NCBI GenBank assembly: GCA_964573185.1
Contig: CAZNIQ010000007.1
Coordinates: 1-27,561, forward strand
DNA length: 27,561 nucleotides
DNA from: Candidatus Woesearchaeota archaeon
GTDB lineage: Archaea > Nanobdellota > Nanobdellia > Nanobdellales > CAZNIQ01
Reading direction: 5' to 3'
Made by a program: the position numbers and the translations under genes. The notes beneath the pieces are model-generated. The model had not been told where the DNA came from. It saw only the letters and a program-made list of their open reading frames with translations, and ran no database searches. This document shows positions 4,916-27,561 of this stretch, piece after piece (positions within the stretch are counted from its first letter, which is position 1; each line of letters starts with the position of its first letter).

Positions 4916-4979
4916 TTATTTTTGATGATGAGCTACTAGGCTCCTGATCATGATGAACCAGACCTGCACTGAAAAATAA
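4916..4979 (+). ncRNA. box C/D sRNA
   Basis: Box C AUGAUGA 4925-4931; 12-nt guide gcuacuaggcuc; D' CUGA 4944-4947; C' AUGAUGA 4950-4956; 12-nt guide accagaccugca; D CUGA 4969-4972. Flanks UUAUUUU (4916-4922) and AAAAUAA (4973-4979) are complementary. Confidence 0.9.
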
Positions 4980-14662: not shown

Positions 14663-15576
14663 GGGTATTTGTACAGTATCCAGAAGGCTTAAAGAACAAA
14701 CTTTGGGAAATAAAAAAGAAGTTAGAAGAACAAGGATATGAAGTCATTTTTGATAATGAACCGACGTATGGATTTTGTGATTTAAAGGATGATGAGGCTT
14801 TAAGATTAGGCTGTCAAGCTATAATACATATAGGGCATAATGCTTTTGGCTTTGAACATTTATTAAAGAAATCTAAAGTTAAAGTAATTATATGGGAATG
14901 GAAATATGATGTTGATAAAGAAAAAGTAGATAGAATACTTAAAAAAGAAATAAATAAGATTAGAGATTATAAGAGAGTCGGAATTGTATCTTCTTTACAA
15001 TATCTAAATTACGTTTATTATTTAAAGGAAAAACTTAAAGAATTGGGGTTTGAACCAATAGTACCAAAGAATCCGCAGATTTTAGGTTGTAATATTGCCA
15101 ATGCTAGAATAATAGAAAATAGAGTAGATATCTTTTTGGTTCCAACAGAAGGAAAATTTTATCCTTTAGGTTTAGCTTTAGAGACTGATAAACCGGTATT
15201 CGCTTTCGATTTAGAAAAAGAACAAATAATTTCAATGGAAAAGGAAAGGAAAAAATATTTAACTGTAAAATATTATTACTTAGAGAAATTTAAAGAAGCT
15301 AAGAAAGTTGCTTTGTTAGTATCATGGAAAAAGGGACAAATGTTTTATGATCCATTTAAAGTTAAAGAAGAATTGGAAAAAATGGGAAAAGAAGTTATTA
15401 TTCTAGCTATGGATGAAGTAGATGAAAGAAAATTAATTGGAATAGATGTGGATTTCTATATCAATTTAGCTTGTCCCAGGATCTTTGATGGGTTTGAAAG
15501 ATTTGAAAAACCAATACTAAATTGGAAAGATATTATTCAGTGGCGCCGCTCCCTTCATCAAAGTTCAGAGGACTGA
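14659..15576 (+). CDS. dph2: diphthamide synthase subunit Dph2 (2-(3-amino-3-carboxypropyl)histidine synthase)
   Basis: VQYPEGLKNKLWEIKKKLEEQGYEVIFDNEPTYGFCDL...IIHIGH, plus conserved Cys in LGCNI and LACPRI. Apparent TTG start overlaps the upstream stop. The last ~13 codons are antisense to a C/D sRNA. Confidence 0.8.
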   Translation: MRVFVQYPEGLKNKLWEIKKKLEEQGYEVIFDNEPTYGFCDLKDDEALRLGCQAIIHIGHNAFGFEHLLKKSKVKVIIWEWKYDVDKEKVDRILKKEINKIRDYKRVGIVSSLQYLNYVYYLKEKLKELGFEPIVPKNPQILGCNIANARIIENRVDIFLVPTEGKFYPLGLALETDKPVFAFDLEKEQIISMEKERKKYLTVKYYYLEKFKEAKKVALLVSWKKGQMFYDPFKVKEELEKMGKEVIILAMDEVDERKLIGIDVDFYINLACPRIFDGFERFEKPILNWKDIIQWRRSLHQSSED

Positions 15577-15587
15577 AAGCTCATCAT
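15537..15587 (-). ncRNA. box C/D sRNA (second unit of the tRNA-Leu array)
   Basis: Minus strand: C AUGAUGA 15587-15581; 12-nt guide gcuuucaguccu; D' CUGA 15568-15565; C' UGAUGA 15560-15555; 14-nt guide agggagcggcgcca; D CUGA 15540-15537. Confidence 0.85.
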
Positions 15588-15638
15588 TCAGTTAAGCCCG
15601 CCTTTCATCAAATTTCAGGGTCCCAGCTGTATCATCAT
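15588..15638 (-). ncRNA. box C/D sRNA (first unit, fused to the tRNA-Leu 3' end)
   Basis: Minus strand: C AUGAUGA 15638-15632, whose first A is the tRNA discriminator; 13-nt guide uacagcugggacc; D' CUGA 15618-15615; C' UGAUGA 15610-15605; 13-nt guide aaggcgggcuuaa; D CUGA 15591-15588. Confidence 0.88.
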
Positions 15639-15721
15639 GGGCCCGCCGGGATTTGAACCCGGGACGGCTCTACGCCATCGGGACCTGAACCCGACCCCTT
15701 TGGCCGCTCGGGCACGGGCCC
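15638..15721 (-). tRNA. tRNA-Leu(CAG): tRNA-Leu (anticodon CAG), class II with long variable arm
   Basis: rc: GGGCCCG UG CCCG AGCGGCCAA AGGG G UCGGG UUCAGGU CCCGA UGGCGUAGAGCCGUC CCGGG UUCAAAU CCCGG CGGGCCC A. Confidence 0.9.
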
Positions 15722-16967: not shown

Positions 16968-17018
16968 GTGTAGAGGACGGTGTGTGCTGAATTATGATGA
17001 CGTTACCCGGCGTCCTGA
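16968..17018 (+). ncRNA. box C/D sRNA with degenerate 5' box C
   Basis: GUGUAGA 16968-16974 (alternative register UAGAGGA 16971-16977); guide ggacggugugug 16975-16986; D' CUGA 16987-16990; C' AUGAUGA 16994-17000; 14-nt guide cguuacccggcguc; D CUGA 17015-17018. Confidence 0.65.
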
Positions 17019-17048: not shown

Positions 17049-17097
17049 ATGATGATGAGTGGGTTTGCTGAAAATGATGAATGGCATGGGACACTGA
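17049..17097 (+). ncRNA. box C/D sRNA lying inside the 5' end of the UDG ORF
   Basis: C AUGAUGA 17049-17055; 12-nt guide ugaguggguuug; D' CUGA 17068-17071; C' AUGAUGA 17074-17080; 13-nt guide auggcaugggaca; D CUGA 17094-17097. Confidence 0.85.
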
Positions 17098-17705
17098 AAG
17101 AATTAGAAAAAGTTCATCAAGAGATCTTAAAATGTCAAAGATGTCCTTTATACAAATACATTACAAACAAAGTCCCCGGAGAAGGAGATCCCACTTCTGG
17201 AATAATGTTTATCGGAGAAGCCCCCGGGAGAGAAGAAGATAAACAAGGTAGACCTTTTGTCGGACCAGCTGGTAAACTATTAACAAAGATGATTGAAGAA
17301 AAATTGGGAATTCAAAGATCAAAAGTTTATATCACAAATGTTTTGAAATGTAGACCCCCAAATAATAGAGATCCTAAACCAGAAGAAATAGAAGCCTGCT
17401 CAATATGGTTAAAGAAACAGTTAGAGATTATAAAACCAAGAGTGGTTGTAACATTGGGTAGATACTCTACAGAATGGATATTCAAATATTTCGGTTTAAA
17501 ATTCACAAAAATTTCAGAAGTTAGAGGAAAAGTATATACTGTTAAAAAATGGGATCATGTAACTTATATAATTCCTACATATCATCCTGCAGCAGTTTTA
17601 TATCATCCGCAATGGAAAGAAGCTTTCGAAAGAGATTTTGAATTGATTAAGAAAGTTATAGAAGGAAAAGAAAAGAAGCCTAAAACATTGGTAGATTTCT
17701 TTTAA
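17049..17705 (+). CDS. udg: family 4 uracil-DNA glycosylase (Fe-S type)
   Basis: CQRCPL...GEGDPTSGIMFIGEAPGREEDKQGRPFVGPAGKLL...VYITNVLKCRPPNNRDP...HPAAVLY. The only in-frame ATGs upstream of the CxxC motif lie in the sRNA C box, so the true start is uncertain. Confidence 0.85.
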   Translation: MMMSGFAENDEWHGTLKELEKVHQEILKCQRCPLYKYITNKVPGEGDPTSGIMFIGEAPGREEDKQGRPFVGPAGKLLTKMIEEKLGIQRSKVYITNVLKCRPPNNRDPKPEEIEACSIWLKKQLEIIKPRVVVTLGRYSTEWIFKYFGLKFTKISEVRGKVYTVKKWDHVTYIIPTYHPAAVLYHPQWKEAFERDFELIKKVIEGKEKKPKTLVDFF

Positions 17706-19981: not shown

Positions 19982-20073
19982 GGGCCCGTAGCTCAGCCTG
20001 GTTAGAGCGCCGGCCTTATAAGGCCGGGCTCTAAGACAGCCGGAGGTCCCGGGTTCAAATCCCGGCGGGCCCA
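19982..20073 (+). tRNA. tRNA-Ile(UAU): tRNA-Ile (anticodon UAU) with a 17-nt intron at the canonical 37/38 position
   Basis: GGGCCCG UA GCUC AGCCUGGUUA GAGC G CCGGC CUUAUA[intron]A GCCGG AGGUC CCGGG UUCAAAU CCCGG CGGGCCC A; mature length 75 nt. Confidence 0.85.
20021..20037 (+). other. tRNA intron with bulge-helix-bulge motif
   Basis: Intron AGGCCGGGCUCUAAGAC. C32-U33-U34-A35 pair with intron UAAG (20032-20035). The 3-nt bulges U36-A37-A and A-C-A38 flank this 4-bp helix, with both splice sites between bulge nucleotides 2 and 3. Confidence 0.75.
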
Positions 20074-26340: not shown

Positions 26341-26378
26341 AAAAAGCTATTTACTTTTTAATTTTTAAATTTATCCTT

Positions 26379-27101
26379 ATGAAAGTACTACAGATACTCA
26401 AAGAAAGATATCCTGATACTTATGAAAAGATAATTAAAGGAGAAGTAGACAAGATAAAGCCAAAAGACGAGATTGAAAAGATGCTTCTTGAAATTTTCTT
26501 TTCTAATGATAGGAGGAGTTCAAAATACATTGATGAATTTTTTAGATTAAAATGTGCAAAAGATATAGTTGAAATTTTAGGTAAGAATCTTTCAGCAAAA
26601 GAAATTACTGAAGCAATGAGTATTAGAGACAGATTAAGGAAATTAGATATAAAGGATGCTATTGTTTTTGATTTTTGTGCAGGAAAAGCAATATTTTCTT
26701 TATTAGTAGCATTTACTTTACCAGTTAGAAAAGTTATCGCAATAGATATCAAAAAACCGAATATAGATTTTTCAGGAGTAAGAAAATTTGAGTACTATGA
26801 GGTTAATTTATTTGATAAAGAAGTTGAGGAGATTATAGAAAAAGAAGAAGGTAGGAAAATTTTTGTTGGAATCCATTGTTGTAAAAATTTATCTATAAGA
26901 GTAATAGAGTTATTCAATAAATATGGAGATTATTTATTTTTAATGCCTTGTTGTGTTTTAAGAACTTTTAAGAACGATTTCTGGGGATATATAGATTGGG
27001 TAAAGTTCCTAGTATCAAAAGTTAAAAAGGGGAAGGTTAAAGTAGAATGGGATTGGGATGTGTGGTCCGAAAGAAATGCTATAATTCAGGTGATGACCTG
27101 A
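26379..27101 (+). CDS. putative Rossmann-fold methyltransferase-like protein (weak)
   Basis: VFDFCAGKAIFSLL...VIAIDIK resembles MTase motifs I/II; paired Cys motifs HCCKN and MPCC. The last codons GTG ATG ACC form box C of the following sRNA. Confidence 0.4.
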   Translation: MKVLQILKERYPDTYEKIIKGEVDKIKPKDEIEKMLLEIFFSNDRRSSKYIDEFFRLKCAKDIVEILGKNLSAKEITEAMSIRDRLRKLDIKDAIVFDFCAGKAIFSLLVAFTLPVRKVIAIDIKKPNIDFSGVRKFEYYEVNLFDKEVEEIIEKEEGRKIFVGIHCCKNLSIRVIELFNKYGDYLFLMPCCVLRTFKNDFWGYIDWVKFLVSKVKKGKVKVEWDWDVWSERNAIIQVMT

Positions 27102-27139
27102 TAGGCAAACAGAGAAATGAAGAACCTACCCGTAACTGA
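27090..27139 (+). ncRNA. box C/D sRNA (unit 1 of 3)
   Basis: C GUGAUGA 27090-27096; 13-nt guide ccugauaggcaaa; D' CAGA 27110-27113; C' AUGAAGA 27117-27123; 12-nt guide accuacccguaa; D CUGA 27136-27139. Confidence 0.75.
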
Positions 27140-27187
27140 TGATGAGCCTGTTACCATCAGATTTATGAAGACACCGCGAGGTGCTGA
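27139..27187 (+). ncRNA. box C/D sRNA (unit 2 of 3)
   Basis: C AUGAUGA 27139-27145 (first A shared with the preceding box D); 12-nt guide gccuguuaccau; D' CAGA 27158-27161; C' AUGAAGA 27165-27171; 12-nt guide caccgcgaggug; D CUGA 27184-27187. Confidence 0.8.
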
Positions 27188-27237
27188 ATGATGAATTTTC
27201 CTGCTACTGAAAATTGATGAAAGGTCCCATTCACTGA
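27188..27237 (+). ncRNA. box C/D sRNA (unit 3 of 3)
   Basis: C AUGAUGA 27188-27194; 12-nt guide auuuuccugcua; D' CUGA 27207-27210; C' UGAUGA 27215-27220; 13-nt guide aaggucccauuca; D CUGA 27234-27237. Confidence 0.88.
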
Positions 27238-27561
27238 TTATACTCTCCTACCTCTCTTACCTCCTTTTCTTCTACAACCGTCATGTGGAATTGGTGTAAC
27301 ATCCTCTATTATCCCAATTTTTAATCCTGCGTTAATCAAAGCCTTTATAGCAGCTTGAGCACCAGGACCTGGATGTTTCGGTCCGTTATGACCACCAGGG
27401 CCCCTTACTTTGACATGTACAGCGTTTATTCCTCTTTCCAAGGCTAATTCGGCTGCTTTTCTTGCAGCAAGCATGGCAGCAGTAGGTGTTCCTTCCAATC
27501 TATCAGCATCTACTACTTGACCACCCGAAGCTAAAGCAATTGTTTCTGCTCCTGTTATATC
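27238..27561 (-). CDS. rps11: 30S ribosomal protein S11 (C-terminal part; gene continues beyond the right edge)
   Basis: ...[57 protein letters not shown]...[44 protein letters not shown]. The frame stays open upstream of the track's TTG start. Confidence 0.9.

Follow-up and report, generated by a model that had tools for sequence, protein, structure and literature searches.

A spacer-free array of three putative box C/D sRNA genes between a methyltransferase-like reading frame and the S11 gene of a Nanoarchaeum relative

Three box C/D small RNA (sRNA) genes, termed U1, U2 and U3, appear to lie head-to-tail, with no spacer between them, at positions 27090-27237 of a 27,561-nucleotide (nt) stretch of archaeal DNA (contig CAZNIQ010000007.1 of assembly GCA_964573185.1, Candidatus Woesearchaeota archaeon; the whole of this stretch is called the window below). 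Their identification as sRNA genes is supported by their architecture, by the enrichment of such units in the window, by a profile test and by a conserved orthologue of U1, each judged from DNA. The explanation that best accounts for the observations as a whole, namely that these are three genuine C/D sRNA genes of a hyperthermophilic relative of Nanoarchaeum and are expressed as the tail of a messenger RNA, is considered likely, well short of certain as it is.

The array and the genes on either side of it have the following layout, the units being identified both by reading of the sequence and by a pattern scanner, and the two protein genes being taken from the list of open reading frames (ORFs).

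26341-26378, plus strand: intergenic stretch with A/T-rich TATA-like TTTTTAATTTTTAAATTTATCC, its end a few bases before the ATG of the ORF; putative promoter of ORF and array, assigned by position only.
26379-27101, plus strand: methyltransferase-like ORF of 240 amino acids, the host gene; weak match to Pfam Methyltransf_32 (E = 1.1e-6).
27090-27139, plus strand: sRNA unit U1, GUGAUGA-CCUGAUAGGCAAA-CAGA-GAA-AUGAAGA-ACCUACCCGUAA-CUGA; box C 27090-27096, D′ guide 27097-27109, D′ CAGA 27110-27113, C′ AUGAAGA 27117-27123, D guide 27124-27135, box D 27136-27139.
27139-27187, plus strand: sRNA unit U2, AUGAUGA-GCCUGUUACCAU-CAGA-UUU-AUGAAGA-CACCGCGAGGUG-CUGA; box C 27139-27145, D′ guide 27146-27157, D′ CAGA 27158-27161, C′ AUGAAGA 27165-27171, D guide 27172-27183, box D 27184-27187.
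27188-27237, plus strand: sRNA unit U3, AUGAUGA-AUUUUCCUGCUA-CUGA-AAA-UUGAUGA-AAGGUCCCAUUCA-CUGA; box C 27188-27194, D′ guide 27195-27206, D′ CUGA 27207-27210, C′ UUGAUGA 27214-27220, D guide 27221-27233, box D 27234-27237.
27238-27561, minus strand: 3′ part of the convergent ribosomal protein S11 gene (Pfam Ribosomal_S11, E = 1e-31).

A preliminary description, made from the letters alone, had claimed three head-to-tail units, each of box C, guide, D′, C′, guide and box D, and base by base the anatomy matches. The terminal boxes of all three are exact, RUGAUGA for C and CUGA for D; the internal boxes, with a short spacer between them, are CUGA/UUGAUGA in U3 and the variant CAGA/AUGAAGA in U1 and U2, and from their sequences should in each unit be able to form a K-loop. 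With D′/D guides of 13/12 nt in U1, 12/12 nt in U2 and 12/13 nt in U3, the units are 50, 49 and 50 nt long. The sharing of a base and the gapless second junction that had been described are likewise seen: A27139 is at once the last base of U1 box D and the first of U2 box C, and the junction distances are -1 nt for U1|U2 and 0 nt for U2|U3. Because the upstream ORF terminates GTG ATG ACC TGA, U1 box C encodes V-M-T, and the stop (27099-27101) lies within the U1 D′ guide; here the earlier claim agrees with the ORF list. At the other end the final base of U3 immediately precedes 27238-27240, the complement of the S11 stop, again as described. The window boundary falls inside the S11 gene, for which an identical full-length protein (P0007) exists, and the neighbours of the array are the methyltransferase, an AP endonuclease, a helicase and S11.

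Might such motifs be no more than box-like strings that arose by chance in a convergent 3′ untranslated region or bidirectional terminator region? The array does sit between convergent genes, and its antisense is T-rich 20-45 nt past the S11 stop. However, a scanner that requires boxes C, D′, C′ and D in this order, with a guide of 10-14 nt after C and after C′ and a spacer between D′ and C′, located 11 complete units in the 27.5 kb of the window, whereas shuffled versions (dinucleotide-style, 200 in number) gave 0.005 each on average. Three of the 11 make up the array, in exact register. A relaxed version of the scanner recovered four of five RNA-seq-verified sRNAs, with 0 false positives, in 20.9 kb of Nanoarchaeum equitans. 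A sequence profile (model R1), trained solely on 23 RNA-seq-verified N. equitans sRNAs, matched U2 (E = 1.2e-5), U3 (4e-5) and U1 (4.8e-4) at full length on the plus strand, all three being within the window's four best matches, and when run on 80 kb of related and unrelated control loci it gave two sRNAs only, one of them the U1 orthologue, and no false matches. Chance motifs, already ruled out by the statistics and at odds with these low E-values and with the conservation pattern of that orthologue, are given virtually no credence.

At its gathering thresholds Rfam reports only tRNAs in the window and no match to a C/D family, a silence that is expected at the gathering score because archaeal C/D families are guide-specific. 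Below threshold there are plus-strand matches to archaeal C/D families for each of the three units, to snoPyro_CD for U3 (33.9 bits, E = 1.8e-5) and to sR5 and sR23, at about 23 bits, for U1 and U2. Nor is the array an assembly artefact, since it is found in three independent assemblies: that of the window, one identical to it (L001) and one 98.5% identical (L007). The last is from a strain 1.5% diverged, and the array has been kept there with one change, at a free guide position.

What kind of organism is involved? The AP-endonuclease-like gene beside the methyltransferase is 86% identical to N. equitans NEQ368, and the G+C content of the tRNAs is 73% vs 32% for the window; judged by these two features, the host is a hyperthermophilic Nanoarchaeum-like DPANN archaeon. 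The AP-endonuclease-like protein is also 95% identical to a protein of the metagenome-assembled genome (MAG) GCA_054017035.1 and 78% identical to a Nanopusillus protein, the AP-endonuclease/helicase gene pairing is also kept in N. equitans, and the gene content of the window is of archaeal informational genes with scattered ribosomal protein genes. The methyltransferase ORF itself has no close orthologue among 5.8 billion proteins, and its homologues were rejected as anchors for orthologous loci, there being four distant matches only, in phage-like or bacterial contexts. The flank of the AP endonuclease is a variable spot, occupied by a LAGLIDADG fragment in the related MAG (L135 6547-6910) and by a different gene in N. 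equitans. Comparison centred on two loci of that MAG, L005 and L135, and the first of these supplies a counterpart to part of the array.

L005 10403-10452, minus strand: U1 orthologue, ATGATGA-TCTGATAGGCAAA-CAGA-AAA-ATGAAGA-GCCTACCCGTTG-CTGA; adjoins the S11 stop and is the single sRNA there.
Window 27140-27237, plus strand: 98-nt block, U2 and U3 minus the shared A; absent at the orthologous L005 position.

U1 and its L005 orthologue are identical at 44 of 50 positions and have the same box spacing. The six changes affect the R of box C, both guides at their distal base, the spacer between D′ and C′ and positions 1-2 of the D guide; five of them are at the 9 positions expected to be free, and boxes and guide cores are otherwise intact. 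Meanwhile the S11 protein encoded beside it is identical and its DNA about 90% identical, with 33 differences in 324 nt, all within the 108 third-codon positions, which are 31% diverged. Such a pattern is what would be expected of a functional sRNA. In L005 the ORF that enters the U1 orthologue encodes an unrelated hydrophobic protein and ends MMI-stop at the same TGA, so that the sRNA, not the ORF, is the conserved element, and synteny with L005 upstream breaks precisely at the 5′ edge of box C. The 98-nt block is bounded by a 5-nt direct repeat, CTGAT, at 27136-27140 and 27234-27238. In more distant relatives S11 is followed directly by ThrRS or rpoD, with no sRNA there. Scans of viral contigs for orthologues of U1, U2 and U3 gave no match. 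N. equitans has an orthologue for only one of 11 window units (unit E, its sRNA17) and none for U1-U3; the sRNA repertoire turns over quickly. Box spacing at related loci, a check that the preliminary description had proposed, was identical for U1 in L005, and no orthologue of U2 or U3 was found on which to assess it. Together these comparisons suggest that U1 is the older element, anchored at the S11 stop, and that U2 and U3 form a cassette that was gained here or lost in the relative, the gain or loss presumably proceeding by recombination at the CTGAT box microhomology.

A harsher version of this history would have only U1 functional and conserved, and would see in U2 and U3 a cassette of recent insertion or duplication, with guides that are orphans or do not function. 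It has in its favour that the relative has just the U1 orthologue, that the U2+U3 block lies between CTGAT repeats, that no U2 or U3 orthologues were found and that the D guide of U3 is without a candidate target. Set against that, U2 and U3 outdo U1 both in how well their boxes match and in profile score, the whole array is retained in the 1.5%-diverged strain with its one change at a free guide position, and the only guide with a statistically supported target, in 16S, is U2-D′. Fast turnover even among relatives, with one window unit in 11 having an N. equitans orthologue, also speaks against attaching much to the missing orthologues. A cassette without function is regarded as decidedly improbable.

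For the guides the preferred reading, with all three units genuine, calls for targets in ribosomal RNA (rRNA), each unit being expected to guide 2′-O-methylation of whichever rRNA nucleotide pairs with the guide base five positions upstream of D or D′. Targets were scored on a panel of distant archaeal rRNA in which neither own-lineage nor N. equitans rRNA is present, and candidate positions, in E. coli numbering, are provisional pending own-lineage rRNA. No match to a three-site 16S pattern derived from the guides was found in genome contigs or metagenome contigs, nor to a 23S sarcin-ricin/H98 pattern in metagenome contigs. A 16S pattern around position 125 yielded 120 loci, mostly of Acidobacteria and methanogens and none from Nanoarchaeales, and it provided the panel, which included an AT-rich Woesearchaeal 16S, a complete methanogen 23S and several incomplete ones. 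Among the Nanoarchaeal loci retrieved no rRNA was present, and E. coli rRNA was rejected as a target reference, being too distant.

The best supported candidate, and the only one for which an array guide has statistical support, is that of U2-D′ at 16S about 1096-1107, where it would form 10 contiguous Watson-Crick pairs with the Woesearchaeal sequence (GGUAACAGGC, 1096-1107). Its footprint exactly abuts the site of an unrelated guide, B-D′ (AUGGUAACAGGC|CAAACCCACUCA in ours vs CAGGUAACAGGC|AAAACCCACACU), and the identity over the abutting sites, 19 of 24, is reached by 47 of 5000 shuffled guide sets (p about 0.009). Three further candidates are not significant alone: U2-D, with 10 Watson-Crick pairs and one G-U of 12 at the conserved ...CGCGGUG|AAUACG of 16S 1362-1373; U3-D′, with the same count of pairs at 16S 686-697 or alternatively at 23S 1267-1278, the latter 14 nt from the site of guide A-D′; and U1-D, with 10 contiguous paired positions at 23S 1049-1060. 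Against 16 tRNAs and mRNA sequences nothing in the array guides went past 9-nt chance runs. The six guides are absent as DNA letters from the supplements of Randau 2012 and Dennis 2015, and as RNA letters from that of Randau 2012.

Other guides of the window appear to behave on the same panel as real guides would. Both guides of unit G match Bathyarchaeal 16S perfectly, at 802-814 and 870-882, 72 nt apart; E-D, from the unit orthologous to sRNA17, matches the 16S site of that N. equitans sRNA (16S-1349); and H-D′, from unit H, fits the site in 23S that N. equitans sRNA25 targets. A test on the best score of whole guides nevertheless lacks power, as clear positives such as E-D and G-D also come out non-significant, and since it is powerless on distant references, contiguous runs and abutment were used instead.

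How would the array be expressed? No TATA-like box is found at -25/-30 of U1 and there is one directly upstream of the methyltransferase ATG, so read-through from the ORF is the most economical route, and on the sequence evidence it is also the most plausible one for U1-U3. The derivation from an mRNA 3′ end that had been claimed earlier is in keeping with this. A second claim, that archaeal C/D sRNAs are normally independent genes, does not survive, for only about 20% of archaeal C/D sRNA genes have their own promoter and about a quarter of archaeal sRNA genes are expressed by ORF read-through (the former from Tripp et al. 2017, both as summarised in PMC7994747).

Transcription would start from a promoter at about 26350-26378, run through the ORF stop at 27101, with the array as the 3′ tail of the methyltransferase mRNA, and probably end in the T-rich stretch within the S11 antisense. 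In the other direction, the antisense of the D′/C′ part of the sRNAs is T-rich in the window (27195-27225, minus strand) and in L005 (10415-10440, plus strand; e.g. TCTTCATTTTTCTG), and because such a stretch comes 20-45 nt past the S11 stop, the sRNA genes may serve as terminator of S11 too.

Real sRNA genes could instead be driven by one or more internal promoters independently of the methyltransferase mRNA, for instance by TATAAT at 27080-27085 or by A/T-rich stretches in the 3′ part of the ORF. A TATA-like CTATAATT does occur at 27079-27086, some 20% of archaeal sRNA genes are self-promoted by the summary just cited (PMC7994747), and three units elsewhere in the window, C, D and the twelfth (16969), have TATA-like boxes at about -25 to -35. 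However, the CTATAATT element is only 4-11 nt upstream of U1 box C, so that a start about 25 nt downstream of it would truncate U1; nothing TATA-like stands at -25/-30 of U1, and TATA-like strings are common in a 32% G+C genome. Internal promotion is therefore held to be unlikely, and read-through remains the preferred route.

In the precursor, L7Ae would bind each terminal K-turn (C + D) and each internal K-loop (C′ + D′), Nop5 and fibrillarin would follow, and, by the published model, protected bodies of roughly 50 nt would survive as the mRNA portion and the ends are degraded. None of the three genes, L7Ae, Nop5 and fibrillarin, is in the window; N. equitans has fibrillarin NEQ125 and Nop56 NEQ342 (PMC3491384). 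According to that maturation model, as summarised in PMC7994747, assembly of the small ribonucleoprotein (sRNP) on the boxes sets the ends, the flanks are trimmed and flanking sequence is irrelevant; therefore no dedicated precise excision signal is needed. To that extent the earlier claim that a precise processing activity is required falls away, and what stands of it is the zero-spacer cutting, as sRNP protection leaves the separation of linker-less units unexplained. Because the array has no spacers, separation at U1|U2 and U2|U3 would require an endonuclease cut, at CUGA^(A)UGAUGA or beside it. U2 would then start at UGAUGA, without the leading purine.

The window has a second place of this kind.

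15537-15721, minus strand: second zero-spacer array, comprising tRNA-Leu(CAG) 15638-15721, sRNA G 15588-15638 and sRNA H 15537-15587.

Its A15638 serves tRNA-Leu as discriminator base and at the same time begins box C of unit G, and H follows G directly. The release of G by RNase Z would be expected to take away that first base, and since the tRNA-Leu/G geometry repeats that of U1/U2, an sRNA starting at UGAUGA is evidently acceptable in the lineage of the window, as far as gene arrangement can tell. The unit H guides seem to fall on either side of the 23S sarcin-ricin region and H98.

Several considerations weigh against the interpretation as three genuine, expressed sRNA genes. At none of the loci examined was there an orthologue of U2 or U3. 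On the distant rRNA panel U1-D′ and U3-D are without a convincing site, and individually the six array guides do no better than shuffled ones (p about 0.3-0.97). U1-D′ belongs to the sense guides that overlap ORF 3′ ends, a class often targetless (61% in Pyrobaculum, PMC6009581). An inverted repeat, UCAGGU-GAUG-ACCUGA at 27086-27101 on the plus strand, spans U1 box C and the ORF stop. In the fold of lowest free energy predicted for the array (161 nt in all, z = -2.3) it forms a hairpin, which could sequester U1 box C; the repeat is not kept in the L005 orthologue of U1. Expression of the array as stable RNAs of about 50 nt is a prediction from DNA alone. We know of no nuclease that accounts for cleavage at a zero-spacer junction.

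How novel is the arrangement? Clusters of two or three same-strand sRNA genes, and overlap with an ORF 3′ end with the stop codon in the sRNA, have been described (Tripp et al. 2017, in the summary of PMC7994747), and the array resembles them in its two or three same-strand genes, in the upstream stop within an sRNA, in having no promoter of its own and in its presumed box-dependent maturation. At sequence level the same-strand adjacency, the lack of an intervening promoter and the overlap with the ORF 3′ end, by which such clusters are recognised, are all found. In contrast to those clusters as summarised there, the array has junctions of -1 and 0 nt and abuts a convergent gene. For overlapping boxes the parallel is Pyrobaculum neutrophilum sR34/sR40, two co-transcribed sRNAs of which the second has a box C that takes in box D of the first (-4 nt), the maturation of both being unclear (PMC6009581); that, however, is a crenarchaeal pair with a 4-nt overlap, the distance varying from -4 to 78 nt among species, and the present case is a triple with an overlap of 1 nt. 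N. equitans has abundant C/D sRNAs that overlap mRNAs and abut tRNAs, giving tRNA-sRNA dicistrons (Randau 2012, PMC3491384). The units resemble these in being about 50 nt, compact and without terminal stems and in the AUGAAGA/CAGA variant, as well as in overlapping mRNAs, in abutting tRNAs (where RNase Z makes the 5′ end) and in standing at rearrangement borders, whereas none of the 26 published N. equitans sRNAs is adjacent to another. As in the polycistronic small nucleolar RNA (snoRNA) clusters of plants and yeast, there would be several C/D guides per precursor, though for the array this is predicted, and unlike it those clusters have spacers, at which RNase III-type cutting is followed by exonuclease trimming. 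To our knowledge archaea lack an RNase III-type processing pathway for snoRNA clusters. As far as the sources go, the Tripp et al. clusters being known through the summary cited, each element of the arrangement has published precedent, and the array is a clean further example and not a new kind.

One quite different system invites comparison, since a head-to-tail series of dual-guide units without spacers is also what a TIGR-type tandem array would present, there serving a DNA-targeting effector with a Nop domain (Tas). TIGR systems, known from archaeal viruses and from organisms with reduced genomes, are evolutionarily related to C/D RNPs (PMC12045711). The likeness extends to the head-to-tail order, to the two short guides per unit, to processing from a single transcript, as predicted for the array, and to that evolutionary tie; the same paper also cites clustered snoRNA arrays in archaea. 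In TIGR arrays, however, edge repeats and loop repeats of 8-12 nt alternate, the spacers are of 9 nt (up to 12 nt) and the units, usually 5-15 of them, are 36 nt long, with CCA/UG motifs that are not K-turn boxes and an adjoining Tas gene (PMC12045711). Here three units of 49-50 nt have 7- and 4-nt boxes, RUGAUGA and CUGA, with 12-13-nt guides, a Nop domain is found in none of the 23 window ORFs scanned, and stand-alone units of identical make-up are scattered across the window. With that unit anatomy and no Nop-domain gene among those ORFs the TIGR-Tas interpretation was rejected, hardly any probability being left to it.

Returning to the array as C/D sRNA genes, did U2 arise from U1, or the reverse, by tandem duplication, as was earlier suggested from their shared D′/C′ boxes? 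The shared boxes do not bear this out. In N. equitans sRNAs CAGA goes with UGAAGA in 12 of 12 cases and with UGAUGA in 0 of 29, so CAGA/AUGAAGA is to be seen as one covarying K-turn/K-loop variant. The guides of U1 and U2 are 21% identical, under the 27% mean of all unit pairs, and the U1 orthologue in L005 already carries the CAGA/ATGAAGA variant alone. A tandem duplication of U1/U2, though possible, is not supported by these observations.

The array leaves the accepted view of archaeal C/D sRNAs as it is. It would add three previously unlisted methylation-guide RNAs (for the window, twelve) from an uncultured Nanoarchaeum relative, and would offer a clean natural test case for the separation of linker-less units that share a base between box D and the next box C. 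In the comparison with the close relative the guide RNA units behave as modules, the 98-nt block being present or absent between CTGAT repeats and synteny breaking at the edge of box C, in agreement with earlier suggestions that C/D sRNA genes are rearrangement borders in Nanoarchaeum. The remaining interest is in the zero-spacer junctions, the cassette-like presence or absence of U2+U3 and the very high local density of guide genes: the 27.5 kb of the window contain 12 C/D sRNA units along with eight tRNA genes, as against 27 sRNAs in the 491 kb of N. equitans and, in the related MAG, one unit in 20 kb (L005) and one in 13.5 kb (L135). A bolder generalisation from these sequences, given little probability, would be that zero-spacer arrays are regular in the lineage (U1-U2-U3 and tRNA-Leu-G-H) and imply either a junction endonuclease acting at CUGA^(A)UGAUGA, a step beyond the model of sRNP protection and trimming, or covalently linked units that act as multi-sRNP particles, that sRNA cassettes are exchanged at CUGA(U) with breakpoints at box edges, and that the density of C/D sRNAs is the highest described.

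Inside S11, the array's neighbour, the window and the independent ENA contig L001 end at the same base (27561), and a 124-kb MAG contig with an identical S11 protein has different neighbours beyond that point. This suggests a strain-level rearrangement that breaks assemblies.

Elsewhere in the window four further features deserve mention.

16969-17018, plus strand: twelfth sRNA, box C GUGUAGA, then GGACGGTGTGTG-CUGA-AUU-AUGAUGA-CGTTACCCGGCGTC-CUGA; TATA-like box about 25-33 nt upstream.
17049-17097, plus strand: unit B, starting at the ATG of a uracil-DNA-glycosylase ORF (17049-17705); its box C AUGAUGA is Met-Met.
4932-4943, plus strand: D′ guide of unit A, GCTACTAGGCTC; complements the tRNA D-arm AGCCUGGUAG with 10 contiguous pairs including one G-U.
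19982-20073, plus strand: 92-nt tRNA gene, Rfam tRNA 65 bits, for which ARAGORN gives no anticodon.

The twelfth sRNA was missed by the strict scan because of its unusual box C (GUGUAGA). The complements of its guides are CACACACCG, in the 16S decoding centre, and GACGCCGGG, the 16S-945 site of N. equitans. Overlap of an sRNA with the 5′ end of an ORF, as in unit B, is the rarer type and has been reported to lower expression of the downstream gene. A-D′, from unit A, has its D-arm matches in tRNAs of related genomes (L005 3975-4048 and L135 9724-9797); it may be a tRNA guide or may have a 23S target around 1253-1264, and the tRNA gene at 19982-20073 probably contains an intron.

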